From: Candidatus Nanopelagicales bacterium
GTDB taxonomy: Bacteria; Actinomycetota; Actinomycetes; S36-B12; CAIYMF01
Direction of reading: 5' to 3'
Assembly (NCBI GenBank): GCA_039812125.1
Contig: JBDHZV010000002.1
Span: forward strand, 1,877-65,876
DNA: 64,000 nt
Below the pieces are notes generated by a model. The model ran no database searches and was not told the DNA's origin. It was given only the letters and a program-made list of their open reading frames with translations. A program made the translations under genes and the position numbers. The stretch's first letter is position 1. Each line of letters starts with the position of its first letter. This document shows positions 49,914 to 64,000 of this stretch, one piece after another.

Positions 49914-50787
49914 CGACGTGGGCCATCCCAGCCGCGTGGCTGAAGATGTCGTGCAGGACGGTCGCCGCGAGCCGGGGGTCCTCGGCTGCCGGACTGTGCC
50001 CGACACCGGGCAGCAGGTGCCACGGGACGGCCAGCCGGATGGCCATCCGCTCCTGCTCGTCCGGTGGCCATGCGTCGTCGCGCTCGCCGGTCACCACCGC
50101 GCTCGGCAGCCCGGCCGTGGCCAGGGCGGCGGCCGCGAGCTCGGTGCGGTCCGGGGCGGTCATCAGGATCGTCGCGAAGTCGGCCAGCGCGTCCGGGTCG
50201 TTGGCGAGGAACCGGCGCCGCACGAACGTGGCGACGTCGTCGCTGGGCGGGGTCCAGCCGCCGGCCCGGTCCGCGGCCTCCTTCTGCTGCCAGATCGCCG
50301 TCATCGGCAGCACCCCGATCGCCTGCGACAGCGCCTGCAGGGACGGCCAGGTCGCTGCGGGCACGGGCCCCGGCCCGCTGCACAGCAGCGTCCAGGACGC
50401 CAGCCCGGACGTGTCGGCCAGCACGACCTCACGGGTCACCAGCCCGCCCATGGAGTGCCCGACCAGGTGCACGCCGCGCCCGTCGTCGAGGCGGTCGATC
50501 TCGGCGCGCACCGACTGCGCCAGCGCGGCCGGGGTGTGCGACCCCCGCGGTCCGAGGCCCGGGAAGCCCGCCTGGCCCGGCAGGTCCATCGCGGCGGCGC
50601 GCCACCCCAGCGCCGCCAGGGGCGCGAGCACCGCCAGGAAGTCCTCCTTGGACCCGGTGAACCCCGGGACCAGCAGGGCGGTGCCGTGCGACGGCGCGGG
50701 CTCGGCCAGCAGCGTCGGCACCGGCCACTCCGGGGGCTCGGAAAGCGCCACGCCGTCGGGCATGGCGATGAAGGGCGGGGTGCTCAT
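49906..50787 (-). CDS. Alpha/beta hydrolase
   Basis: The last 293 codons of ORF 49906..51405, from the ATG at 50787. Nucleophile elbow GHSMGG, HG-like LVPGFTGS and a C-terminal GVGHSP. Confidence 0.75.
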   Translation of the reverse strand: MSTPPFIAMPDGVALSEPPEWPVPTLLAEPAPSHGTALLVPGFTGSKEDFLAVLAPLAALGWRAAAMDLPGQAGFPGLGPRGSHTPAALAQSVRAEIDRLDDGRGVHLVGHSMGGLVTREVVLADTSGLASWTLLCSGPGPVPAATWPSLQALSQAIGVLPMTAIWQQKEAADRAGGWTPPSDDVATFVRRRFLANDPDALADFATILMTAPDRTELAAAALATAGLPSAVVTGERDDAWPPDEQERMAIRLAVPWHLLPGVGHSPAAEDPRLAATVLHDIFSHAAGMAHVDA

Positions 50788-50832
50788 GGTGTGCACAATA
50801 GAGCCGCAGCCGCCGACCGCGCAGGGGTGCCC

Positions 50833-51624
50833 ATGACGCGCACGATCGCAGTAGCCAACCAGAAGGGCGGCGTCGCCAAGACCACCACCGTGGCCTCGAC
50901 GGGTGCCGCGCTCGTCGAGCTGGGCCAGCGGGTGCTGCTCGTGGACCTCGACCCGCAGGCGTGCCTGACGTTCTCGCTGGGCCTGGACCCCGAGGCGCTC
51001 GGCATCTCGGTGCACGACGTGCTGCTCGGCAGGGTGGCCGCCGGGGCGGCCATCGTGCCCACGGACGAGGGCATCGACCTGCTGCCGGCCACGATCGACC
51101 TGGCGGGCACGGAGGCCCAGCTGCTGACCCGCACCGGCCGCGAGTTCGCCCTGCGCGCGGCCCTGGCCGACGTCACCTCCGACTACGACACGATCCTGCT
51201 GGACTGCTCCCCGTCGCTGGGGGTGCTCACCATCAACGCGCTGACGGCCGCTGACGAGGTGCTCATCCCGCTGCAGTGCGAGACCCTGTCGCACCGCGGG
51301 GTGGGTCAGCTGCTGGACACGATCGGCGACGTCCGCAGGATCACCAACCGCGACCTGACGGTGCTCGGCGTCCTGCCGACGCTGTACGACGCCCGAACCA
51401 CGCACGCCCGGGCGGTCCTAGCCGACATCTCCGACCGGTACGGCCTGCCCGTCCTGGTGCCGCCGATCCCGCGCTCCATCCGGTTCGCGGAAGCCCCTGC
51501 CGCCGGCCGCTCCGTGCTGTCGGGCAGCCGGTTCCGGGGAGCCCAGGCGTACCGCGAGCTGGCCCAGGGGCTGGTCGACGGCAGCGCCGTGAGCGTGGCT
51601 GCCGCGGCTGGGGCCGGAGCATGA
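50833..51624 (+). CDS. ParA/Soj-like ATPase (orphan, not at a par locus)
   Basis: ATG at 50833. Deviant Walker A NQKGGVAKTT, then LLVDLDPQ and ILLDCSPSLG. Confidence 0.85.
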   Translation: MTRTIAVANQKGGVAKTTTVASTGAALVELGQRVLLVDLDPQACLTFSLGLDPEALGISVHDVLLGRVAAGAAIVPTDEGIDLLPATIDLAGTEAQLLTRTGREFALRAALADVTSDYDTILLDCSPSLGVLTINALTAADEVLIPLQCETLSHRGVGQLLDTIGDVRRITNRDLTVLGVLPTLYDARTTHARAVLADISDRYGLPVLVPPIPRSIRFAEAPAAGRSVLSGSRFRGAQAYRELAQGLVDGSAVSVAAAAGAGA

Positions 51625-51917
51625 CCACCTCGTTCGACCGGGTCCGCACCCGCACCGGCAGTGGGGGACCCGGTCCCACCGTGGACGCCCAGGGCAAGGC
51701 GGCGCTGTTCAGCCACTCGCCGGTGGCGCCCTCGTGGGGCCGGACGCTGGTGGTCACGTGCTCGGCCTGCCACGGCTCGACCTGCGTGTCCTACCTGCAC
51801 GCGCTGACCCTCGCGCTGCCCAGCCTGCACCTGCTGGTCGTCCGTCGGGACTACCCGTCGTGGATGCGCTGCCCGTCGTGCGGCCGGCGCACCTGGGTCA
51901 GCCTGCGGTTCTGCTGA
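51621..51917 (+). CDS. Small CxxC...CxxC (zinc-ribbon-like) protein translationally coupled to the ParA-like gene
   Basis: ATGA overlap with the ParA stop. The 98-aa product contains CSACHGSTC and CPSCGRR about 40 residues apart. This is the last part of ORF 51276..51917. Confidence 0.45.
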   Translation: MTTSFDRVRTRTGSGGPGPTVDAQGKAALFSHSPVAPSWGRTLVVTCSACHGSTCVSYLHALTLALPSLHLLVVRRDYPSWMRCPSCGRRTWVSLRFC

Positions 51918-51961
51918 GCCGCAGGCTCCCCTTCGGTCGGCAGGCCGGGCCCGCGGTGGCC

Positions 51962-53479
51962 CTACGACTCGGACGCGGGGCTGGCCGGGGCGCCGCCCTG
52001 GCCGCTCTGGGCCTGGTCCCCGACCGCCGCCCCACCGCGGGTGCGCCGCCGCTGGCGCGGCCGGCGCCGCCGGGGCCGCTCCTCCTTGCTCGGCGGGGCC
52101 TCGACCTCGCGGGACTCCTTCGGGCCATGGCCGATCGTCTGGCCGTGGTGGTGGGAGTGCCCGCTGCGCTGATGGCCGCGGCCCCGGGCGGCCGCTGGAG
52201 CCCGACCCCCGAGGTCCTCGACCTCCTCGGCGTCCAGTCCGGCGTGCGTGCGGGCAGCCCTCGGCAGGGTGCCGGCCGTGCCCGCGGGGATCCCCAGCCC
52301 GGCGTACAGGTGCTCGGAGGTGTGGTAGGTCTCCACCGGCTCGTGGAACGGCAGCCCCAGGGCCCGGTTGATCAGCTGCCAGCGGGGCACGTCCTCCCAG
52401 TCCACGAACGTGATCGCCACGCCCGAGGCGCCGGCCCGACCGGTCCGGCCCACCCGGTGCAGGTAGGTCTTCTCGTCGTCCGGGCACTCGTAGTTGATCA
52501 CGTGGGTCACGCCCTCGACGTCGATGCCACGCGCGGCGACGTCCGTCGCGACCAGGATGTCGACCTTGCCGTTGCGGAACGCGCGCAGCGCCTGCTCCCG
52601 GGCGCCCTGGCCGAGGTCACCGTGCACCGCGCCGGCGGCGAAGCCGCGCTCGGTGAGGTCATCGGCGACCGCTTGGGCGCGCCGCTTGGTGCGGCAGAAG
52701 ATCATGGACGGGCCGTGGCCGTCGGCCTGCATGACCCGGGCCAGGATCTCCACCTTGTTCAACGGGTGGACCCGCCAGACGTGCTGCTCGATCGCGTCCA
52801 CGGTGGCGGAGTCGTCATCCGGGCTGATCGCGCGGATGTGGGTGGGCGTCGACATGTACCGGCGGGCCAGCGTGATGATCTGCCCGGGCATGGTCGCCGA
52901 GAACAGCATGGTCTGGCGGGTGGCCGACAGCATCGACACGATCCGCTCGACATCGGGCAGGAACCCCATGTCCAGCATCTCGTCGGCCTCGTCGAGGACC
53001 AGGACGGACACGTGGCCCAGGACCAGGTGCCGCTGCCGGGCCAGGTCGATCAGGCGGCCCGGGGTCCCCACGACGACGTCGACGCCCTTGGTCAGGGCGT
53101 CGACCTGGGGCTCGTACGCCCGCCCGCCGTACACGGCGAGCACGCGGGCGCCCAGCCGGGCCCCGGCCTGCTGCAGGTCGCTGGTGACCTGCACGCACAG
53201 CTCACGGGTCGGCACGACGACGAGGGCCTTGGGGGCGCGCTGCTGGGCCTCGGGGAGCGAGGTGTACGCGTCGGTGCCCGGCGTGGCGATCCGCTGCAGC
53301 AGCGGGATCCCGAACCCCAGGGTCTTGCCGGTGCCGGTCTTGGCCTGGCCGATCAGGTCGCGGCCCTCGAGGGCCTGCGGGATGCACATCTCCTGGATCG
53401 GGAACGCATCGGTGATGCCGACGGCCGCGAGCGCGTCGGCGACGGGCGCGACGACGCCCAGTTCGGTGAAGGTGCTCAA
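51962..53479 (-). CDS. rhlE: DEAD-box ATP-dependent RNA helicase (RhlE-like)
   Basis: Q-motif FPIQ, AKTGTGKT, PTRELC, DEAD, SAT and HRVGRTGRAG, with a basic Arg-rich C-terminal tail. Confidence 0.95.
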   Translation of the reverse strand: MSTFTELGVVAPVADALAAVGITDAFPIQEMCIPQALEGRDLIGQAKTGTGKTLGFGIPLLQRIATPGTDAYTSLPEAQQRAPKALVVVPTRELCVQVTSDLQQAGARLGARVLAVYGGRAYEPQVDALTKGVDVVVGTPGRLIDLARQRHLVLGHVSVLVLDEADEMLDMGFLPDVERIVSMLSATRQTMLFSATMPGQIITLARRYMSTPTHIRAISPDDDSATVDAIEQHVWRVHPLNKVEILARVMQADGHGPSMIFCRTKRRAQAVADDLTERGFAAGAVHGDLGQGAREQALRAFRNGKVDILVATDVAARGIDVEGVTHVINYECPDDEKTYLHRVGRTGRAGASGVAITFVDWEDVPRWQLINRALGLPFHEPVETYHTSEHLYAGLGIPAGTAGTLPRAARTHAGLDAEEVEDLGGRAPAAARGRGHQRSGHSHHHGQTIGHGPKESREVEAPPSKEERPRRRRPRQRRRTRGGAAVGDQAQSGQGGAPASPASES

Positions 53480-53544
53480 ATCTCTCCTCAGTAGTGGCCC
53501 CAGCGTACCGTCACGGGCTGGCGGGGACGGGATACCTTTCCGCC

Positions 53545-54225
53545 ATGGCCTCCCCGTCGCGTCCCGACCTGTCCGAACCGGCCTATCGGCAGGGTGTCGT
53601 CGAGCTGCTGGCCCTGCTCGGCTGCGGGGAGTACCTGGCCTTCGAGCGGCTCGTGTCCGAGGCGGCGCTGGCCCCCACCCTGACCCAGCGGGTCCGGATG
53701 GCCCACATCGCCGAGGGCGAGCTGGCCCACTTCCGGATCCTGCGCGACCGGCTCGCGGAGATGGGGGAGGACCCCGAGGCGGTCATGACCGTGTTCCTTG
53801 GCCCGCTGGAGCGCTACCACCGCACCACGGCCCCCTCGGACTGGCTGGAGGGACTGGTGAAGGCGTACGTGGGCGACTCGATCGCCTCGGACTTCTACCG
53901 CCACATCGCCAGCTCGCTGGACGAGCAGACCGAGCGGATCGTGCTGGAGGTGTGCGCCGAGCTCGGCCAGACCGGGGTGGTCGTCGAGGAGGTCCGCGCC
54001 GCGATCGCCGCCGACCCCCGGGTCGCCGGGCGGCTGGCGCTGTGGGGCCGTCGCCTGCTCGGCGAGATGCTGTCGCAGGCGCAGACCGTGGCGGCCGAGC
54101 GCGACGCGCTCAGCGGGTTGATCCTGGGCGACGGCCAGCGCCCCGCCATCGAGCTGGACGGCCTGTTCGAGGGGCTGACCGCGGCGCACGTGGCCCGGAT
54201 GGGCGCGCTCGGCCTGGCGGCCTAG
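53545..54225 (+). CDS. Ferritin-like fold protein (function unknown)
   Basis: ATG at 53545. Helical, with E...EYLAFERL and EGELAHFRIL (ExxH-like) pairs suggesting a di-iron four-helix bundle. Confidence 0.5.
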   Translation: MASPSRPDLSEPAYRQGVVELLALLGCGEYLAFERLVSEAALAPTLTQRVRMAHIAEGELAHFRILRDRLAEMGEDPEAVMTVFLGPLERYHRTTAPSDWLEGLVKAYVGDSIASDFYRHIASSLDEQTERIVLEVCAELGQTGVVVEEVRAAIAADPRVAGRLALWGRRLLGEMLSQAQTVAAERDALSGLILGDGQRPAIELDGLFEGLTAAHVARMGALGLAA

Positions 54226-54249
54226 CGAGCTCCGCCTCCCGGGCGCCGG

Positions 54250-54474
54250 TCAGATCGTGCCGAAGCCGACCCGCCGGGTCTCCGCCGCGGCGATCTCGAC
54301 GTAGGCCAGCCGGTCGGCCGGGACCACCACGCGATGACCCTTCTCGTCGACGAGCACGAGCACCGGGCCGCCGGTCAGGGCCGCCTCGACCTTCGCCGAC
54401 ACCCCCTCGGGGGTGTCGTTCACGTCGATCACGAGCTCGCGGGCGGCCTGCTGGACGCCGATGCGCACCTCCAT
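54250..54474 (-). CDS. DUF3107 small protein
   Basis: MEVRIGVQQAARELVIDVNDTPEGVSAKVEAALTGGPVLVLVDEKGHRVVVPADRLAYVEI matches the DUF3107 (mycobacterial TB9.4-like) family as I recall it. Confidence 0.8.
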   Translation of the reverse strand: MEVRIGVQQAARELVIDVNDTPEGVSAKVEAALTGGPVLVLVDEKGHRVVVPADRLAYVEIAAAETRRVGFGTI

Positions 54475-54483
54475 GGGTGCCTC

Positions 54484-55104
54484 CTAGGGGTTCTGGGGGG
54501 ACAGGGGGAAGCCGGAGATGCCCCGCCAGGCCAGCGCCGTCATGGCGCGCGCGGCCTCGGACTGGGAGATCGTGCCCGGCGAGTGCAGCCAGCGACGCGC
54601 CGCGGTCTGGGCCATGCCGGTCAGGCCGGCGCCGAGCATCATCGCCCGCTCCTCGTCGAGGCCCGTGTCCTCGATGATGACGGCGGCGATCATCTCGGCG
54701 CACTTCTCGTTGGTGCGGGCCACCCGGCGCGAGACCTCGAGCACGTTGGTGAGGTCGGACTCGAAGATCAGCCGGAAGCCGCCCGACTCCTCGGCCACGA
54801 ACGAGAAGTACGCCTCGAAGGTCGCGTGCACGCGCCGCTTGTTCTCGTGGGTGGAGGCCAGCGCCGCCCGCACCGAGGTGATCAGCCGCTCGCTGATCTC
54901 GTCGAGCACCGCGAGGTAGAGCTCGAGCTTGCCCGGGAAGTGCTGGTACAGGACGGGCTTGGAGACCCCGGCGAGCTCGGCGATCGTGTCCATCCCGGCG
55001 GCGTGGTAGCCCTGCTGGACGAAGGCCTCGCGCGCCGCCCCGAGCAGCTGGGCGCGGCGCTCCTGGCGGGGCAGCCGGCCCGGTCGGTCGGTGGTCAGCG
55101 ACAT
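54484..55104 (-). CDS. TetR family transcriptional regulator
   Basis: N-terminal HTH AREAFVQQGYHAAGMDTIAELAGVSKPVLYQHFPGK. Confidence 0.9.
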   Translation of the reverse strand: MSLTTDRPGRLPRQERRAQLLGAAREAFVQQGYHAAGMDTIAELAGVSKPVLYQHFPGKLELYLAVLDEISERLITSVRAALASTHENKRRVHATFEAYFSFVAEESGGFRLIFESDLTNVLEVSRRVARTNEKCAEMIAAVIIEDTGLDEERAMMLGAGLTGMAQTAARRWLHSPGTISQSEAARAMTALAWRGISGFPLSPQNP

Positions 55105-55199
55105 GGGGGGAATAGTAGACCCAGCGTCGCGAGTGGGCGCCGGGCCGCGGCCACGGCTGCTCCGGCGCGCGGTCGGGTCCCGGCGTAGGCTGCCGGCTC

Positions 55200-56096
55200 G
55201 TGACCGTGCTGCCCGTTCCCCCTCCCGTCGACCAGGTGGACACCAAGGCCGGACCTGTCGCGGTGCGGCGCACCCCAGTGCGCGGCGACGGTCCCCATGA
55301 GCCGGCCGTGCTGGTCCACGGCCTCGGAGGGAACTCGCTGAACTGGGTCGACCTTGCAGACCGGCTGGCCGATCGGCTGGACTGCGTGTCGCTGGACCTG
55401 CCCGGCTTCGGGGGATCCGAGCCGCCCCGCGACGGCGACTACTCGCTGGCTGGGCATGCCCGCGCTGTCGCGGCGCTCACCGAGGCCGTGTTCCCGGGCC
55501 GGCCGGTGCACCTGTTCGGCAACTCGATGGGCGGGTCGATCGCGGTCGAGCTGGCGGCGCGTTCCCCGCACCTGGTGCGCACCCTGTGCCTGCTGTCCCC
55601 GGCCCTGCCCGCCCGCATGCCGCGCCGCACCAACGTGCACATCCCGGTGATGGCGGTGCCGCGGGTGGGCGATGCGCTGTTCGGCAGGTACCAGAGCGTG
55701 GACGTCGCCCGGCGGGTGCAGGCCACCTATGACCTGTGCTTCGCCGTGCCGGCGCGGCTGCACGAGCAGCGCCGGGCCGAGGCGGAGGAGGAGATGCGCC
55801 GGCGCGACGGCCTGCCCTGGGTTCGTGAGGCGTTCGTCGGGTCGGTGCAGGGGCTGCTGGCGACCTACGTCGACCGCAGTCCCGACCGGCCCTGGCAGCT
55901 CGCACGGCGGGTCCAGGCGCCGACCCTGCTGATCTATGGCAGGAAGGACAAGCTCGTGGACGCCCGTGCCGCGCATCGAGCCACGACGGCGTTCCGGTCG
56001 GCGCACGTGGTGGTGCTGCCGGACGCCGGGCACATCGCCCAGGTCGAGCGCCCGGAGGTCGTGGCCCGGATGTGGCAGGACGTGCTCGGAGGCTGA
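55200..56096 (+). CDS. Alpha/beta hydrolase
   Basis: VLVHGLGGNSLNW, nucleophile elbow GNSMGG and C-terminal DAGHIAQVERPE. Confidence 0.85.
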   Translation: MTVLPVPPPVDQVDTKAGPVAVRRTPVRGDGPHEPAVLVHGLGGNSLNWVDLADRLADRLDCVSLDLPGFGGSEPPRDGDYSLAGHARAVAALTEAVFPGRPVHLFGNSMGGSIAVELAARSPHLVRTLCLLSPALPARMPRRTNVHIPVMAVPRVGDALFGRYQSVDVARRVQATYDLCFAVPARLHEQRRAEAEEEMRRRDGLPWVREAFVGSVQGLLATYVDRSPDRPWQLARRVQAPTLLIYGRKDKLVDARAAHRATTAFRSAHVVVLPDAGHIAQVERPEVVARMWQDVLGG

Positions 56097-57608: not shown

Positions 57609-58775
57609 GTGCCGAGCGTGCCCGCTCGCGGTGACGTGGTCGGGGTCGGCCTGTACCTGGCCGCGGTCGCGCTCGTGGCCGGCGTGCTGCGCGACGTGCG
57701 GGCGCCGGACCTGCAGGTCTACCACCTGGCGCTGGAGCACCTCGGGGCCGACGACGTGTACCGCCACCTCTACCCCGACATCACCGCGCCCTACACCTAT
57801 CCGCCCTCCGCCCTGGTGCTGTTGGCCTGGCTGGCAGTCCCGTTGGCAGCAGGGCGGGTGCTGATGGTCGTGGCGACGGCGGTGTCGGTGTGGCTGACGT
57901 CGGCCGTGGTGGTCCGGACCGCGGCGCAGGGCAGCCCATGGGACCGCGCCGGGATCGTCGGTGCCGTGTCGGCCGTCACCCTGCTGTCCTTGCCGCTGTT
58001 CCTCGCCGCCGGGCTGGGTCAGGCGGCGCCGGTCGTCATGGGCATCTCGGCGTGGGGGATGCTGGGTGCGCGCACGCGCTGGCGGGGCGCCTGGGTGGGC
58101 GCCGCTGCGGCACTGAAGCTGACTCCGGCCGCGTTCGCCCTGCACTGGTGGTCGACCGGCCGGCGCCGGGACTGCCTTGTCGCCGGTGCCGCATTCCTGG
58201 CCTGGACGGCGCTCGGGTGGTGGGCGATGCCCGCCTCGTCACGGTGGTACTTCCGTGACGGCGGCGTCCTGCGCGCCCCGCAGGACTACACGAACGTGAG
58301 CAACCAGGCCCTGTCCGGCATCGCAGCGCGCGCCGGCTGGGGGTCGCCCCCTGCGGGCGTGGCCGTGCTGGCGGTCAGCGCGGCGCTGCTGGTGGCCGGG
58401 CTGCTCGTCGCCCGACGGGCCCACGACGCTGGCTGGGACGCGGCCGCCGTGGCCCTGGTGGGACTCTGGTCGGGGGTGTGCGCACCGCTGGCATGGATCC
58501 ACGCCTTCGGCTGGTGGGTCCCGCTGGCCGCGGCGATCGCCCTGCACGGACGCACCCGCCGGGACGTCCTCGTCGCCGTCGTGACGACGCTCTGGCCGGC
58601 GGCCCTGCTCGTGGTCCCGACTGGCCCGGGCCCGTCGATCGGCAGTGCGTGGTACCCCCTCGGGGTGGTGCTGGTGACCACCTGGCTGTGGCGTCGCCTG
58701 CCGGCGCGCGCGGCGGGGCGCCGGGGCCCCTCCGTCGGGCAGCCCCGGCAGGCGCTCACCGGGGCTCCCGCGTGA
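57609..58775 (+). CDS. GT87/DUF2029 family glycosyltransferase, copy b (paralogue of copy a)
   Basis: PDLQVYHLALEHL...YTYPPSALVLL and AAALKLTPAAFAL. The GTG start follows GGAGGAGGG. It is collinear with copy a, including the C-terminal WIHAFGWWVPLA. Confidence 0.75.
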   Translation: MPSVPARGDVVGVGLYLAAVALVAGVLRDVRAPDLQVYHLALEHLGADDVYRHLYPDITAPYTYPPSALVLLAWLAVPLAAGRVLMVVATAVSVWLTSAVVVRTAAQGSPWDRAGIVGAVSAVTLLSLPLFLAAGLGQAAPVVMGISAWGMLGARTRWRGAWVGAAAALKLTPAAFALHWWSTGRRRDCLVAGAAFLAWTALGWWAMPASSRWYFRDGGVLRAPQDYTNVSNQALSGIAARAGWGSPPAGVAVLAVSAALLVAGLLVARRAHDAGWDAAAVALVGLWSGVCAPLAWIHAFGWWVPLAAAIALHGRTRRDVLVAVVTTLWPAALLVVPTGPGPSIGSAWYPLGVVLVTTWLWRRLPARAAGRRGPSVGQPRQALTGAPA

Positions 58776-60148
58776 CCCCCCGGGACCGGGCGCTGCCGTG
58801 GCTCATGGGATGGCTGGTCCTGCTGCCGGTGGTCGTGCTGCGCGCGGGCACCCTGGCGGAGTCCGACACGTTCTGGCAGGTCCGCACCGGGCTGGACATC
58901 CTGGCTTGGGGCCGGATGCCGCACGTGGACGCGTACTCCTGGACCGCGGCCGGGGCAGCGTGGACGCCCAACTCCTGGGGCTTCGACGTCCTGCTGGGCG
59001 TGGCACATCGGGTCGGGGGCCTGCCGGCGGTCGCCGTGGTGGCCGCAGCCCTGGCGTGGGTGGTGCTCGGCATGGTCCTGGTGCTGGCCCGCGAGCTGGG
59101 CGCCCACGTCGTCCCGGCGGTGGCCGGGGCGCTGTCCGCCGGGGTGATCCTGGTCGGGTGGCTCTCGGCGCGCCCCCAGCTGGTGGACTACGCCGCGGTC
59201 CTGGGCCTGGTCCTGCTGGCTCGGGCGGTGTCCGTCGGGCGGTCCCCGGGGGTGGCCGCAGCCGCGATCGTCGCCGTGATGCTCGTGTGGATGAACCTGC
59301 ACAGCGCCGCGATGCTCGGTGTGGTCCTGGTCGCCGCGGCGGCCGGTGCGGCGGCGACCGCTGGGCAGTCCCGGGCGGCGGGGCTGCTGGTGGCCACGGC
59401 TGTGGCCGGGGGAGCCGCGTGCCTGGTCACTCCGTACGGAACCGAGCTGATCCGGCACGCCTGGACAGTGCACCAGCAGTCCGTGGGGGTGGTCGACGAG
59501 TGGGCCCGGTTCGACCCGAGCGACGCCAGCCAGGTCGTGGTCCTCGCCGCAGGGCTGACGGCGCTGGGCGTCGCCCTGCGGCGCGCAGAGCGGGTCGTCG
59601 TCGCCGCACTTGCCGTGCTGGCGGTGGCTTCGCTCCCGGCTCAGCGCCTGCTGCCCCTCCTGCTGCTGGTGGCCGTACCCACCCTGGCCGCGGGTGCCTC
59701 CTCAGCCCGGGTGCTGGCATACCTGCGATCCCGGAGGCGCGTGCTGGTGCCCGCTGCGGTGGTCGGGGTCGCCCTGCTGGGCGGGGTGGCCGCCCCCGCC
59801 CTGGGTCACCTGGGGCGACCGGACCCCTCGATCTACCCGACCAGGGTCGCGGCTGCGATCCCGATCGGGTGCGACGTCTACGTCCCGTACCTCGTCGGCG
59901 GGTACCTGATCCTGGCCCGGCCCGACGTGCGGGTCTCGATCGACTCGCGCAACGACCTCCATGGTGCCGTGGCGGTCCTTCGCGCCGAGCGGGGACTGAC
60001 CGGGGCGGCCGGGGTCCCGGCGATCGTGGGGGCCGCGGGCTGCGTCCTGGTGCCCCCCGGCAGCGGGCTGGCGGCCCTCCTGGCTGCCGATCCCGGATGG
60101 ACCCGGGTGGCTGCGGAACCGGCCGGGGTGCTCTACGCGAGGGCGTGA
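58772..60148 (+). CDS. Unassigned polytopic membrane protein with a C-terminal extracytoplasmic domain (GT-C-like?), copy 1
   Basis: The GTG at 58772 overlaps the copy-b stop (GTGA). SDTFWQVRTGLDILAWG in the first loop, more than 10 TM helices, and the C-terminal motif VSIDSRNDLHG. Paralogue of 61290..62744. Confidence 0.6.
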   Translation: MTPRDRALPWLMGWLVLLPVVVLRAGTLAESDTFWQVRTGLDILAWGRMPHVDAYSWTAAGAAWTPNSWGFDVLLGVAHRVGGLPAVAVVAAALAWVVLGMVLVLARELGAHVVPAVAGALSAGVILVGWLSARPQLVDYAAVLGLVLLARAVSVGRSPGVAAAAIVAVMLVWMNLHSAAMLGVVLVAAAAGAAATAGQSRAAGLLVATAVAGGAACLVTPYGTELIRHAWTVHQQSVGVVDEWARFDPSDASQVVVLAAGLTALGVALRRAERVVVAALAVLAVASLPAQRLLPLLLLVAVPTLAAGASSARVLAYLRSRRRVLVPAAVVGVALLGGVAAPALGHLGRPDPSIYPTRVAAAIPIGCDVYVPYLVGGYLILARPDVRVSIDSRNDLHGAVAVLRAERGLTGAAGVPAIVGAAGCVLVPPGSGLAALLAADPGWTRVAAEPAGVLYARA

Positions 60149-61293
60149 GTGCCGGTCGCGTCCTCCGGCAGCGGGGCGCCCGAGCGGGGCGCGTTGTGGC
60201 GGCGCAGGTGCGCCAGGACGGCCACCAGCCCCACGAGCAGCAGCACCAGCCGAACGGTCTGGATGGTCAGGCCGACCCACCCGCCGGCCAGGAAGCTGGG
60301 GTAGCCGGTGGGGTAGAGCAGCTGGGCAGCCAGCGCGGTTCCTGCCAGGGGCAGCAGGACGGTGCGCGGGACCCGGGTGTGGGCCTGTGCCAGGGCGCAC
60401 AGCCCCAGCACCCAGATGTCGAACTGCGGGGACAGCACACGACTGGTCACCAGCAGGACCAGCACGACCAGCAGGGACACCAGTGCCGCCGTCCCGGTGT
60501 CGGCGGCCGGAACCCGCAGCCATGCCCAGGCCAGCACCACCAGGGCGGCGGCCACCCCCAGCGGCAGCAGCCACCGGGCCACCAGGTCGGCGGCGCTGTG
60601 GGCGACCTCGGTGGCGCCGTTGCGGAACACCAGGTCGACCGGAGCGCCGAGGGTCCGGGCGAGCATGAACGGCCAGGCGGCGACGGACTCGACCTGCAGT
60701 CCGCGGGCCTCCTGGTTGCCCACGAACGACGGGCTCGCGACCAGCGCCCGGGCCACCAGCGCGGTCGCCGCGTAGGCGGCTGCCGCGGCCAGCGCCCGGC
60801 GGACCACGGCCCCGCGAGGTGCCGAGACCAGCAGCCCGGGCCAGAGCTTCAGGCTGGCCCCGAGGCCCAGGAGCAGCCCGGAGCGGGTCGCCACCGGCGC
60901 CGTCAGCCCGAGCACGGCGACCAGGGTGACCAGCGTGTCCAGGCGGGTGAGCATCATCGGGCCCACCAGCAGCCCGGCCAGGGCCCACAGCAGCGCCCCG
61001 CGGGTCCGCACCAGCCGCGCCATCAGCACCGCGTCGCTGCCGACGATGACCACGAGCAGCGCCGCGAACGAGTGCTGGGTGAGCCCGGCGGCCGCGAGCA
61101 CCAGGGCCACGCCGGGCGGGTACTGCCAGGCGTCGGTGCTGATGGTCGTCCCGTGGGCGAGTGCGTCGGACCACAGGGCGAACAGGTGCAGGTCGGACGG
61201 GACGTAGTCGCCCCCGGGCAGCCCAAGGGTCAGGATCGCGACCAGCCGGGCGGCCAGCCACACGGCCCACGTGGTGGTGGGACGCAGGATCAT
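60133..61293 (-). CDS. GT87/DUF2029-like glycosyltransferase, divergent copy c
   Basis: The last 386 codons of ORF 60133..62493, from the ATG at 61293 (ATGA overlap with the upstream gene). DLHLFALWSDAL...WQYPPGVALVLA and GASLKLWPGLLV. Confidence 0.6.
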   Translation of the reverse strand: MILRPTTTWAVWLAARLVAILTLGLPGGDYVPSDLHLFALWSDALAHGTTISTDAWQYPPGVALVLAAAGLTQHSFAALLVVIVGSDAVLMARLVRTRGALLWALAGLLVGPMMLTRLDTLVTLVAVLGLTAPVATRSGLLLGLGASLKLWPGLLVSAPRGAVVRRALAAAAAYAATALVARALVASPSFVGNQEARGLQVESVAAWPFMLARTLGAPVDLVFRNGATEVAHSAADLVARWLLPLGVAAALVVLAWAWLRVPAADTGTAALVSLLVVLVLLVTSRVLSPQFDIWVLGLCALAQAHTRVPRTVLLPLAGTALAAQLLYPTGYPSFLAGGWVGLTIQTVRLVLLLVGLVAVLAHLRRHNAPRSGAPLPEDATGTHALA

Positions 61294-62744
61294 GGCCCGG
61301 TCGGTGCCGACAGCAGCACGTAGCCGTTCTCGGCGCCCTGCTGCGACCAGCCCCGCTCGGCGACCAGGACATGGGCCAGCGGGGCGTCCTGCTTGAGCAG
61401 CGCCACGGTCGGGTCCAGCCGGTCCAGCATCGACTCCCAGGGGCCCTTGAGCAGGGCCAGGTCGGTGTAGTCCTGGATGTACTGGGCCCCGTACCGATCG
61501 GTCCGGCCGTCGATGCCGACCCGGGTCGCCCCGCCCCCGAACGACAGCACGATCCCGGCCAGGTTGTAGTCGTTGAGGACCCGCTGCCCCGCCGGCAGCT
61601 CGGCGATGCGGCCCGCGAGGTCGTAGGGGTAGGTGGTCGTGGGCAGCTGCGGCTGGCCCGGGACTGTGGCCAGGCCCAGGGCGGCCAGGACCGCAGCCAG
61701 TGCGATGCCGGCCCGTGCCGACCACGCGGGCTCCGGCCGACGGCCGAACCGGGGGTATGCCTGGTCCATGCGGTGCGCGATGAGCGGGATCAGCATCAGC
61801 ATGGCCACGACGAGGTTGCGCCAGGCCATCCAGCCGAAGACGAACAGGCTCACCGTCGCCAGCACCTCGCTGCGCGGCACCCGCCCGTGCCCGGACCAGG
61901 CGACCAGGACCACGACCCACAGCAGCAGGCTCAGGATCCCGATGTCCTCGGTGGGGGTGACCGCCTCCCACTCGGAGATGACGTCGGTCGCGCGGGCGAA
62001 CCGCAGCACCGCCGTGATGTTGCTCGGGCCGGCAGGGCTGAGGGCCCCGACGGCCAGGGCTGCCACGGACAGGCCCAGGGCGCGCAGCGCCGACCGGTCG
62101 CGCAGCCCGTGGTCCAGCCATCGCCCGAGGGCCACCAGTGCCAGCGCGGCGGGAGCCAGGATCCAGCCGCCGTGCCAGTTCGCCCACACGACGGTCAGGG
62201 GCAGCAGGACCCACCAGCGGGGCAGTCGCCCGCGCACCAGCCCGGTGACGATGACCCCGCCGAGGGCTGCGGCCCCGACGTAGGTGGCCTGCTGGGTCCG
62301 CTCCTGGGCGTACGCGGCGACGGCGACGACCCCCACCACGTAGGGGAAGGCCGCCAGGACCGGGGGGCGGTGGCGCAGCGTGGTGGCCGCCAGGATGGCC
62401 AGGACCAGGGCGGCCGAGAGGGTGCGGTAGGCCGCGAAGGCGGCCCAGCCGCCCACCTCGTACAGCCCGTGGAAGAGCAGCTCGCCCAGCCACTGGGTGG
62501 AGACCCAGGGCAGCGGGTCGGGGGCGAAGGACCAGCCGTCGCCGATCCCGGCGGGTGAGGACCCGGAGGCCAGCTCGCGCCCGGCGAGGACGTGCCAGTA
62601 GACGTCGACGTCGCGGAAGGACCCCTTCGCGACGAGCATGAGGGCCAGCCCGGTGATGGCGCCGAGGATGACCGCGAACGGCAGGCCGGGCCGGACGGAC
62701 GCGCGGGGCGGCGCGGGGGCCTCTGCGGTGTCGATGGCGGTCAC
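61290..62744 (-). CDS. Unassigned polytopic membrane protein with a C-terminal extracytoplasmic domain (GT-C-like?), copy 2
   Basis: RDVDVYWHVLAGRELASG in the first loop, VWANWHGG, ISEWEAV and VGIDGRTDRYG align motif for motif with 58772..60148. Confidence 0.6.
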   Translation of the reverse strand: MTAIDTAEAPAPPRASVRPGLPFAVILGAITGLALMLVAKGSFRDVDVYWHVLAGRELASGSSPAGIGDGWSFAPDPLPWVSTQWLGELLFHGLYEVGGWAAFAAYRTLSAALVLAILAATTLRHRPPVLAAFPYVVGVVAVAAYAQERTQQATYVGAAALGGVIVTGLVRGRLPRWWVLLPLTVVWANWHGGWILAPAALALVALGRWLDHGLRDRSALRALGLSVAALAVGALSPAGPSNITAVLRFARATDVISEWEAVTPTEDIGILSLLLWVVVLVAWSGHGRVPRSEVLATVSLFVFGWMAWRNLVVAMLMLIPLIAHRMDQAYPRFGRRPEPAWSARAGIALAAVLAALGLATVPGQPQLPTTTYPYDLAGRIAELPAGQRVLNDYNLAGIVLSFGGGATRVGIDGRTDRYGAQYIQDYTDLALLKGPWESMLDRLDPTVALLKQDAPLAHVLVAERGWSQQGAENGYVLLSAPTGP

Positions 62745-62807
62745 GGTAGCAGTACCTCCTGTGCTGGGCCGGTGCTCGAGCTCGTGTCCGGCTCCCCGGG
62801 ACGTGCA

Positions 62808-62842
62808 GTCGGGCGGGGCGCCCTGGGGCAGCCCCGCCCGAC
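62808..62842 (-). terminator. GC-rich hairpin 14 nt downstream of the second flp gene
   Basis: gtcgggcggggc / gccccgcccgac is a perfect 12-bp inverted repeat with an 11-nt loop. There is no U-tract, as is common in actinobacteria. Confidence 0.45.
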
Positions 62843-62855
62843 GTGGCCGAACAGG

Positions 62856-63065
62856 TCAGCCGTTGGCGGACAGGCAGCTGCCTGCCTTGTTGAAGACCCG
62901 TCCGATGCCGCCCGAGAGGAAGACCACGGCGGCGATGAGCACCACGGCGATGAGGGCGACCAGGAGGCCGTACTCCACCATCGTGGCGCCCTCGTCCTTG
63001 CGGGCGATCCGGCGGCCGAACTCACGGACGCGGACCTCGAGGTCGGTGTAGGTGCGAACCAGCAT
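62856..63065 (-). CDS. flp: Flp/Fap family type IVb (Tad) pilin, copy 2
   Basis: 69 aa. Leader MLVRTYTDLEVRVREFGRRIARKDEG, then ATMVEYGLLVALIAVVLIAAVVFL, i.e. the G/xxxxEY Flp processing motif plus a hydrophobic helix. RBS AAGGAGGAG. Confidence 0.85.
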   Translation of the reverse strand: MLVRTYTDLEVRVREFGRRIARKDEGATMVEYGLLVALIAVVLIAAVVFLSGGIGRVFNKAGSCLSANG

Positions 63066-63097
63066 GACTGCTCCTCCTTGGGTGCTCGTCGCGACTG

Positions 63098-63307
63098 TCA
63101 GCCGTTGGCGGACAGGCAGCTGCCGGCCTTGTTGAAGACGCGGCCGATGCCGCCGGACAGGAAGACCACGGCGGCGATGAGCACGATCGCGATGAGGGCG
63201 ACCAGGAGGCCGTACTCCACCATCGTGGCGCCCTCGTCCTTGCGGGCGATCCGGCGGCCGAACTCACGGACGCGGACCTCGAGGTCGGTGTAGGTGCGAA
63301 CCAGCAT
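63098..63307 (-). CDS. flp: Flp/Fap family type IVb (Tad) pilin, copy 1
   Basis: Identical to copy 2 apart from one residue (Ile for Val). The ATG is at 63307 behind GAAGGGA. The ORF-track start at 63424 adds an implausible extension. Confidence 0.85.
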   Translation of the reverse strand: MLVRTYTDLEVRVREFGRRIARKDEGATMVEYGLLVALIAIVLIAAVVFLSGGIGRVFNKAGSCLSANG

Positions 63308-63694
63308 TTCCAATCCCTTCTGTTGTCCCGTGGTGCCGGGCGGCCCAAACGGATTCTGTTCCCCCAGTCCCGGTCCCCCGACGGGCGACGACCGAGATTG
63401 CCTGGTTACTTGGATAATAGGCATCCGGCGCCAAGAAATGCGGGAAACAGTCCGAAGTTGGGCCGAATAGGTGAATGCGTGTGGTGGCCGAATCCACGCG
63501 TCGATCGGGGCTCTCGTCGCGAGATTCTCACACAGCGTCGCGGCGGTATGCGCCTTTGGCGGGGGTATTCCGGGCTCGTGGTGTGCGTGGGCTTCGTTTC
63601 TGTGCTCGACGCGTGGGCACCGGAGCGGAATGCGTCACCCACGGTGAGCGAATGGTGGTCCGATGTCCCCTGAAATGTCCCCGAGCCCCGCGAG

Positions 63695-63811
63695 GAATGC
63701 GTCCCCACTTCAGGGGACGCATTCGCCGCCGGCGCATTCCTGACCGGAATCCCGGGAATGCGCCGGACGGGTGACAGGGGCCCCTGGCCGCGGCCTGAGC
63801 CCCCCTGTCAC
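63695..63811. other. Three consecutive perfect inverted repeats downstream of tadC and upstream of flp
   Basis: 63695-63724 (12-bp arms gaatgcgtcccc/ggggacgcattc, 6-nt loop). 63729-63766 (12-bp arms ccggcgcattcc/ggaatgcgccgg, 14-nt loop). 63771-63811 (10-bp arms gtgacagggg/cccctgtcac, 21-nt loop). Confidence 0.8.
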
Positions 63812-63832
63812 CCGCCTCGTGGCAGCGTGGCG

Positions 63833-64000
63833 TCAGCTGCCGCCCAGCTGGTCGTAGATGCTCAGGGCGGCCGGGCCCAGGATGATGATGAAGATCGCGG
63901 GCATGATGCCCAGCATCACCGGGAACACCATCTTCACGGGCAGCTTCATGGCCTGCTCCTCGATGCGCTGCGAGCGCTTGAGCCGCATCTCCGCGGTCTG
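63833..64000 (-). CDS. tadC: Type II secretion system F-domain protein, TadC/TadB-like (C-terminal end only; 5' part is outside the window)
   Basis: My reverse-strand translation gives ...QTAEMRLKRSQRIEEQAMKLPVKMVFPVMLGIMPAIFIIILGPAALSIYDQLGGS*, the characteristic last helix region of T2SSF/TadB-C proteins. Flp genes lie downstream. Confidence 0.6.
   Translation of the reverse strand, partial: QTAEMRLKRSQRIEEQAMKLPVKMVFPVMLGIMPAIFIIILGPAALSIYDQLGGS

Follow-up and report, generated by a model that had tools for sequence, protein, structure and literature searches.

The DNA analysed here (hereafter the window) is a stretch of 64,000 nucleotides from the actinobacterium Candidatus Nanopelagicales bacterium (GenBank assembly GCA_039812125.1, contig JBDHZV010000002.1, positions 1,877 to 65,876). 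Read along the minus strand from its right-hand end, it carries the end of a tadC-like gene, a non-coding spacer, two tandem flp genes for pilins of the Tad type, a hairpin, and two overlapping genes for polytopic membrane proteins that are called X and Y below (Table 1). An earlier reading of the letters alone (the original prediction) had laid out this order and proposed that it is a module for glycosylation of the Flp pilin or for an envelope glycan coupled to the pilus; open reading frame (ORF) listing and sequence reading found each of its elements, from the tadC end and the 525-nt spacer through the two flp genes and the hairpin to X and Y, exactly where that reading had placed them. The X protein is very probably a glycosyltransferase of the GT-C fold, its gene is found beside flp in three phyla, and the locus seems to us somewhat better explained as a pilin with its modifying enzyme than in any other way.

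Table 1. Features of the tad/flp/GT-C region, in order along the minus strand from the window end
Feature	Position	Strand	Basis
tadC-like (T2SSF) gene, 3′ end; ORF leaves the window end, stop at 63833	63833..64000	-	PF00482 and phmmer
Non-coding spacer between tadC and flp, 525 nt	63308..63832	-	No supported ORF, no Rfam match
flp copy 1, Flp/Fap prepilin, 69 aa (predicted mature 43 aa)	63098..63307	-	PF04964, 45.9 bits
flp copy 2, 69 aa, I41V relative to copy 1	62856..63065	-	PF04964, 46.7 bits
GC-rich hairpin, 12-bp stem plus 3 further pairs, no U tail	62808..62842	-	RNA fold
X, 484-aa polytopic GT-C-fold protein, C-terminal alpha/beta domain of ~110 aa	61290..62744	-	AlphaFold2 fold
Y, 386-aa GT87 (PimE-like) protein, ATGA overlap with X	60133..61293	-	PF09594, 26.9 bits
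X2, 447-aa X paralogue, convergent with Y	58805..60148	+	X-family HMM, 136 bits, HMM positions 13-479
GT87b, GT87 glycosyltransferase	57609..58775	+	PF09594, 89.6 bits
GT87a, GT87 glycosyltransferase, 401 aa	56232..57437	+	PF09594, 94.5 bits; start per L089 gene call

Both flp products score above the curated cut-off of the Flp_Fap family (PF04964, 32.2 bits). The two genes are a 242-bp tandem duplication with 96% identity, and their proteins differ at one residue. The processing motif is KDEG/ATMVEYGLLVALIAVVLIAAVVF (a slash marks the cleavage point), in which a leader ending in Gly is followed by xxxxEY and a hydrophobic helix, as at a TadV site; predicted cleavage at G/ATMVEY would yield a mature Flp of 43 aa, in agreement with the original prediction. 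Tad-type prepilins are also recognised by being encoded with tad genes, and here the tadC 3′ end lies 525 nt upstream. The truncated upstream ORF matches T2SSF (PF00482) weakly (E 0.0033) and in phmmer comparisons matches the TadC ORFs of the related loci L082, L012, L085, L004 and L087 at E 6e-20 to 1e-12; judged from these alignments it is TadC. RcpC, TadZ, TadA and TadB genes precede tadC in relatives, which show rcpC-tadZ-tadA-tadB-tadC ahead of flp, and the remainder of the window organism's own tad locus lies beyond the window end.

The X gene has AGGAGG about 10 nt before its GTG start. Its product matched nothing in Pfam or NCBIfam at E <= 0.1, eight diverse X homologues matched nothing in Pfam at E <= 1, and a profile of the family matched no sequence of the Protein Data Bank (PDB) at E <= 10. 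Members carry "hypothetical protein" names in public sources, and a profile search of 1.84 billion cluster representatives returned 36,498 of them at E <= 1e-3 and 11,305 at E <= 1e-30. The AlphaFold2 model of X, built on 39 homologues (predicted local distance difference test score, pLDDT, 93.8; predicted template modelling score, pTM, 0.91), consists of a helical, polytopic part and, after it, an alpha/beta domain about 110 residues long. The top 24 Foldseek matches of this model in the PDB are all GT-C glycosyltransferases (E 1e-6 to 3e-2); STT3 of the yeast and human oligosaccharyltransferases (OSTs), PglB and the C-mannosyltransferase DPY19 lead, followed by AftA, ArnT, AftD, ALG3/ALG9 and EmbB, so that protein-modifying GT-C enzymes head the list. 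At least 90% of 99 X homologues from at least six phyla keep D45, D47, W50, G55, S72, W80, W85, R149, W187, N189, H191, P237, E258, R309, D412-G-R414 and W466. Of these, D45 is present in 93 and D47 in 96, and R149, N189, H191, E258, R309 and D412-G-R414 are likewise kept in at least 93 of the 99. D45 and D47 come directly after the first predicted helix (residues 23-40), and GT-C enzymes carry a catalytic acidic motif in the loop after their first helix; to judge from the fold, the D45/D47 loop of X would face outward. We consider it very probable that X is a GT-C-fold enzyme, and its relatives constitute a very large, unnamed family of putative glycosyltransferases for which there is no curated model. 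That X might be a divergent GT87 protein was considered and rejected: hhalign against the GT87 alignment gave a probability of 5%, and the best fold matches of X differ from those of Y.

The Y protein is a GT87 enzyme. Its own match to PF09594 is marginal against the cut-off of 25 bits, most of its homologues carry the domain (among them the identical P0097), and NCBI names several of them "glycosyltransferase 87 family protein". The Y model (pLDDT 93.2) finds its best PDB matches in PimE (9dm7_A and 9dm5; 19-20% identity, TM-score 0.55-0.62) and then in GPI (glycosylphosphatidylinositol) mannosyltransferase I. D34 in loop 1 is nearly invariant, which is consistent with catalysis. A Y orthologue follows X in L082, L005, L007 and L085, and Y, which belongs to a distinct subfamily, shares only about 21% identity with the two other GT87 proteins encoded in the window. 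The original prediction had read both downstream proteins as GT-C enzymes and suggested a PF09594 search of the two; X is GT-C by its predicted fold and has no PF09594 match, and Y is so by Pfam, by the annotation of its homologues and by its PimE-like fold.

The neighbourhood of X was surveyed at 80 genomic loci with X relatives, together with gene-called metagenomic contigs and three extra metagenome contigs. All six-frame ORFs of the flanks were scanned with an iterated Flp profile, and targeted hidden Markov model (HMM) searches were made for Flp, GT87, GT2 and methyltransferase genes (shadow ORFs in high-GC DNA made ORF clustering noisy). Among the Actinomycetota, 16 of the 19 loci with enough upstream sequence have a single flp gene or a pair of them immediately upstream of X, in the same orientation; these include Nanopelagicales, Micrococcales, Frankiaceae and unclassified lineages. 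In L082, L083, L085 and L009 the end of flp overlaps the start of X or is 5-15 nt from it, and co-transcription is therefore very likely there. The three close-relative metagenome loci, which are short contigs, all have flp upstream of X. L084 contains an orphan flp-X pair that has no tad gene closer than 10 kb, and in L087 another Flp-like gene comes after the pair and GT87 is absent. In the long-read metagenome-assembled genome at L012 (9625-11245), X is broken up over several frames and the ORF of the second flp runs on into X, the result either of assembly indel errors or of a pseudogene.

The arrangement differs in the other two phyla. In Acidobacteriota (Terriglobia) the pilin gene follows X by 190-350 bp at 13 loci, and the one of these that was annotated (L020) has the order three GT87 genes, X, pilin, rcpC, secretin, tadZ, tadA, tadB and tadC. 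The acidobacterial pilin reaches only 17 bits on PF04964, below the cut-off, and was assigned by its G/QDIAEY motif and its operon position; since the score is below the cut-off at L020 (11665-11838) and at the 12 other acidobacterial loci, Tad pilins of this type are probably missed by standard annotation. In Bradyrhizobium and other Alphaproteobacteria (about 20 loci) flp and X are divergent and 260-470 bp apart, and the Flp match is strong (79 bits). A GT87 gene comes after X in L055, and in L040 flp is divergent from an operon of X, GT87, an unassigned gene, GT2 and a methyltransferase, on which a second X paralogue converges; in both of these Bradyrhizobium loci the flp-X pair is away from any tad genes. 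Overall, GT87 genes stand beside X at 8 actinobacterial and at 12 of the 13 acidobacterial loci, and Nanopelagicales loci are known that keep flp-X without any GT87. All 59 of the Flp ORFs found in about 1.5 Mb of X-locus flanks lie within 1.6 kb of X. A tblastn search of plasmids with a 54-aa Flp, which is a search of low sensitivity, returned 5 records.

By sequence clustering, the three Flp-linked X groups are separate clades that run along phylum lines and are parted by Flp-less clades, such as that of the Chloroflexi; within each Flp-linked clade the flp-X adjacency persists while the flanking genes change. The clustering suggests that the association is ancient or was gained repeatedly. 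The original prediction had named co-occurrence with flp in related genomes as a check, and this co-occurrence was seen, in three gene orders, in Actinomycetota, Acidobacteriota and Alphaproteobacteria. It is quite likely that X is functionally tied to Flp. The same prediction counted orthologues in neighbourhoods without flp against itself; such orthologues do occur (L005, L007, L086 and the Flp-less clades) and in part tell against it. The tandem duplication of flp (period 242 bp) also breaks short-read assemblies, and all X-bearing Logan contigs begin inside the second flp copy (L001, L089 and L090). Metagenome assembly is therefore likely to split Tad loci whose pilin genes are duplicated, with the result that flp-X adjacency is undercounted.

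X homologues are also found in other settings. Distant ones end operons of GT2 glycosyltransferase, S-adenosylmethionine-dependent methyltransferase and GtrA genes on plasmids of Phyllobacterium, Pararhizobium and Azospira (L094 4802-8461, L097 3809-7464 and L096 2104-7437), and no Flp was found at these plasmid operons. The Azospira operon, in which X is present twice, is carried by a conjugative IncP plasmid. Three-component periplasmic glycosylation systems of the Gtr type consist of a GT2 enzyme that charges polyprenyl phosphate with a sugar, the flippase GtrA, and a GT-C enzyme that passes the sugar to an acceptor on the outside; by analogy, the plasmid layout supports the view that X is a GT-C transferase that would use a polyprenyl-monophosphate sugar. 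In the window, HMM searches detected neither a GT2 nor a GtrA homologue close to X, and the donor of X would most likely come from housekeeping synthesis, namely the polyprenyl-phosphate-mannose pool. GT87 enzymes use polyprenyl-phosphate-mannose.

A type IV prepilin has its leader in the cytoplasm and its short C-terminal tail outside, so the Flp tail should lie at the membrane surface, where GT-C active sites sit. The Flp tails linked to X are Ser/Thr-rich, for example KFTSISTSLK in Bradyrhizobium and VFSNVASSIQ in the Acidobacteriota, and most actinobacterial tails have a Cys...Cys loop such as TESCISSSSTSC. No N-x-S/T sequon is present in any of the X-linked Flp tails compared, which makes O-linkage likelier than N-linkage even with OST subunits at the head of the fold matches of X; for the same reason, an OST-like enzyme that N-glycosylates Flp was considered and judged unlikely. 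The actinobacterial loop has the form Cys-x(6-14)-Cys, is itself Ser/Thr-rich, and is usual in the Flp beside X (e.g. TESCISSSSTSC and STCIAGGSPTTAGC; seen at L003, L004, L006, L008, L009, L010, L085, L087 and L098-L100), and it recalls the disulfide loop of type IVa pilins.

We think it somewhat more probable than the alternatives taken together that the locus is a pilin and modifying-enzyme module in which X glycosylates Flp, and we would give the same modest preference to Flp itself being the acceptor. The two flp genes would encode the subunit of a Tad pilus. At the outer side of the cytoplasmic membrane, X would use a polyprenyl-phosphate-linked donor as its source of a sugar and attach this to Ser/Thr of the outward, ~20-residue C-terminal tail of the membrane-embedded Flp, with S37 or S40 of the mature window Flp as candidate sites, before or during the feeding of the pilin into the Tad machine. 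Y, which is translationally coupled to X, may then extend the pilin-linked glycan, by analogy with other GT87 enzymes with alpha-1,2-mannose from the same lipid donor; this part is more tentative. The Tad machine would finally assemble a glycan-coated filament, and the hairpin after flp2 would keep pilin transcripts far above enzyme transcripts. The analysis shows how the genes are ordered, that X is modelled with a GT-C fold and Y with a PimE-like one, that acidic, Arg and His residues of X are conserved, and that X adjoins flp in different phyla; we infer catalysis by X, its donor, acceptor and site, and the role of Y. The glycosylation module of the original prediction thus stands as to GT-C identity and the recurrent flp-X link, while the pilin as acceptor stays at the level of inference. 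A still broader proposal, which we put forward with some hesitation, is that X is the founder of a new large GT-C family (about 36,500 clusters at 50% identity) in which the Flp-linked clades are dedicated Flp O-glycosyltransferases, and that Y and its like would be the first GT87 enzymes to act on a protein-linked glycan.

Several observations weigh against glycosylation of Flp by X. The window Flp tail (NKAGSCLSANG) is shorter, with one Cys and two or three Ser, and so lacks the Cys pair that is common in relatives. The X family as a whole is not pilin-specific, because its Chloroflexi members are lone genes with no Flp nearby and its plasmid-operon members have no Flp either. Even among actinobacteria L005, L007 and L086 have no adjacent flp (X of L086 lies in an unrelated housekeeping context, and in L005 X-Y directly follow the kinase and response regulator genes that precede flp in L085 and L087), and the independent flp-X associations may be as few as three. 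In the window a 111-nt spacer with a strong hairpin parts flp2 (stop 62856) from X (start 62744), and the coupling of the two genes is looser than in relatives. The Caulobacter Tad pilus was seen by cryo-electron microscopy without glycan density (PMC10710030), and Tad pilins are therefore not generally glycosylated. X2 and the two extra GT87 genes have no pilin of their own and resemble an envelope-glycan cluster. The characterised GT87 enzymes, to our knowledge, act on lipid-linked glycans and not on proteins.

These last points lead to the strongest of the competing explanations, namely that X, Y, X2 and the two other GT87 proteins build or decorate a glycan linked to a lipid or to the wall (in actinobacteria a lipoglycan resembling lipomannan, in other groups a surface or adhesive polysaccharide) that shares its regulation with pili in adhesion and for which the pilin is not an acceptor. 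The window has five GT-C genes within 6.6 kb, three of them GT87 (Y, GT87a and GT87b; X2 and the latter two had escaped the original prediction), all the characterised GT87 enzymes that we know of (PimE, Rv2181 and MptC) modify lipid-linked mannans, and PimE is the best structural match of Y. X homologues without Flp in GT2-methyltransferase-GtrA-X operons or as lone Chloroflexi genes, and the retention of X-Y without flp in L005 and L007, would also fit. However, the neighbour that is conserved is the pilin gene and not the tad machinery, as the orphan flp-X pairs of L084, L055 and L040 attest; gene order varies by phylum and the adjacency is kept; flp and X reading frames overlap in several relatives, which is a usual sign of enzyme-substrate or complex partners; and the Nanopelagicales loci with flp-X and no GT87 indicate that X needs no surrounding glycan-building set. 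Such an envelope-glycan role strikes us as unlikely, if well worth keeping in mind.

It is improbable that X is non-catalytic and binds the pilin helix or a lipid as a chaperone, membrane reservoir or assembly or anchoring factor. PIG-U is a non-catalytic GT-C-like subunit of GPI transamidase, PIG-U chains are among the fold matches of Y, and adjacency to flp by itself speaks for a functional link only and not for enzyme action on Flp. Yet the loop-1 Asp pair and several buried Arg, His and Glu residues hardly vary in about 100 sequences from many phyla, a pattern more like that of an active site than of a binding surface; genes for sugar activation (GT2, GtrA and GT87) accompany X, and its best fold matches are catalytic subunits. 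Chance juxtaposition, in which flp would end the tad operon and X-Y would come from an unrelated cluster kept by synteny in one actinobacterial lineage, might be favoured by a hairpin that could be a full terminator and by the flank of abhydrolase, TetR, DUF3107, ferritin and DEAD helicase genes that is syntenic among the closest relatives, but adjacency in three phyla with unrelated flanks and three orientations, and the confinement of every sampled Flp ORF to the vicinity of X, largely refute it and leave it a very small likelihood.

As for the hairpin itself, the region 62745-62860 folds at -61.4 kcal/mol (z = -2.24 versus shuffles), and the predicted structure is possibly an attenuator or a transcript-stabilising element. 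It is not conserved in relatives, in which flp and X overlap or are 5-15 nt apart, and by this comparison it is specific to the window organism.

The promoter and leader of the pilin genes presumably lie in the spacer between tadC and flp. Neither a family-supported ORF nor an Rfam match nor a sigma-70-type consensus was found in it. Its GC content falls to 65-68% (about 75% otherwise), several inverted GC-rich segments lie within it, and it aligns poorly with the equivalent L082 spacer, with little conservation; a structured RNA or riboswitch was considered and rejected on the absence of an Rfam match and this little conservation. In several relatives the space between tadC and flp is occupied by genes for an ATPase like KaiC/DnaB_C, a histidine kinase (HisKA_3) and a response regulator of the LuxR type, which suggests a dedicated regulatory unit for the pilin genes. 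The TadB proteins of relatives have VWA domains fused to T2SSF. These features of relatives were noted at L082 1088-3055, L087 2921-4960, L085 5822-9252, L087 5934-9474 and L005 8124-9943.

The original prediction took GT-C-like genes to stand where TadE/TadF pseudopilin genes are expected after flp. Its statement that no TadE-like N-terminus is visible agrees with a motif scan of all window ORFs, which returned only the two Flp, and with a Pfam search in which neither X nor Y matched PF07811 (TadE/TadF). The expectation itself was based on Bifidobacterium only, and it fails for this lineage because in L083 the TadE gene sits upstream of rcpC-tadZ-tadA on the opposite strand.

On the other side of Y, X2 corresponds to a gene call in L089 and has an equivalent gene in L082, where a matching convergent set comprises a GT87 gene, an X2-like gene and a gene for a 620-aa protein. 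This glycosyltransferase cluster adjoins a block of alpha/beta hydrolase, TetR, DUF3107, ferritin-like, DEAD helicase and ParA-like ATPase genes at about 50000-56096. The block is syntenic among the closest relatives (L083, L084 and L089) and marks the chromosomal site of the tad/flp/GT-C region.

In Pseudomonas aeruginosa strains that belong to group IV a GT-C gene, tfpW, is found immediately downstream of pilA, and O-arabinosylation of the pilin, which takes place on Ser/Thr, depends on it; TfpW has an acidic motif in its first periplasmic loop and a periplasmic C-terminal domain, and its polyprenyl-phosphate sugar is made by mycobacterial-type enzymes (bioRxiv 10.1101/2020.04.19.049825). 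This pilA-tfpW pair is the system closest to the one described here, since in both a gene for a polytopic GT-C protein comes directly after a pilin gene. TfpW, however, is a 646-aa protein with a TPR C-terminal domain, a DDX motif and a proline-rich Emb-like motif that serves a type IVa pilin with a globular domain, whereas X has 484 aa, a small alpha/beta C-terminal domain and a D-x-D motif and stands beside a 43-aa Flp of the type IVc/Tad class with a short tail; X had no TPR match in Pfam. X should not be filed as a member of the TfpW family, from which it is set apart by size, domains and pilin class and not by sequence comparison.

In actinobacterial O-mannosylation, the GT-C enzyme Pmt (GT39) uses polyprenyl-phosphate-mannose to mannosylate Ser/Thr in a membrane-exposed segment of a protein, alpha-1,2-mannose is added by an enzyme of GT87 type, and the X-Y pair has the same two-enzyme logic as Pmt with a PimE-type GT87. 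X has no Pfam match to Pmt/GT39 and a weak fold match (6p25_B, E 0.2), and Pmt is a general enzyme that is coupled to Sec export and not encoded beside a particular substrate. Y and PimE share a fold and PF09594; PimE acts in phosphatidylinositol mannoside synthesis, whereas Y is coupled to X in a pilin locus. The Gtr layout is shared by the plasmid X operons, and L040 has GT2 and methyltransferase genes in the X operon beside flp, in contrast to the window, where none of the GT2/GtrA set is near X; the Gtr-type systems we know of modify O-antigen or other glycans, not pilins. Structurally, X comes closest to STT3, PglB and AglB (GT66), at E 1e-6 to 6e-5 and a TM-score of about 0.5-0.57 on the query. 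OSTs are GT-C enzymes that act on proteins at the membrane surface, and AglB N-glycosylates archaeal pilins and archaellins. X differs from all three in having no sequence similarity to them, no WWDYG-type motif and no large C-terminal domain.

The original prediction considered pilin glycosylation undescribed for Tad pili. This is too broad as to the modification, since the Flp1 pilin of Aggregatibacter actinomycetemcomitans has been reported to be glycosylated, in an account that, as there cited, names no enzyme (Inoue et al. 2000, as cited in PMC6182317). As to the enzyme it holds: a full-text literature search found no publication that links a tad/flp locus or a Flp/Tad pilin to a GT-C or GT87 enzyme. 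X is thus the first candidate enzyme for glycosylating Tad/Flp pili, and it would bring a new enzyme family to a new pilin class.

Tad/Flp pili rank with the most widespread of bacterial adhesion organelles and have parts in biofilms, host colonisation, surface sensing and phage attack. If the proposal is true, a defined gene pair would offer a means to tune the surface chemistry of the pilus and thereby adhesion, susceptibility to phage and recognition by the immune system; GT87 enzymes would acquire a new class of substrate, and a function would be given to a family of tens of thousands of "hypothetical protein" clusters. The module is present in culturable and genetically tractable Bradyrhizobium (among others B. 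lupini BA2, B. yuanmingense CCBAU 10071 and B. japonicum SZCCT0153), so the idea is directly testable there, and glycosylation of Tad pili would then be a widespread, genetically encoded trait with identified enzymes.

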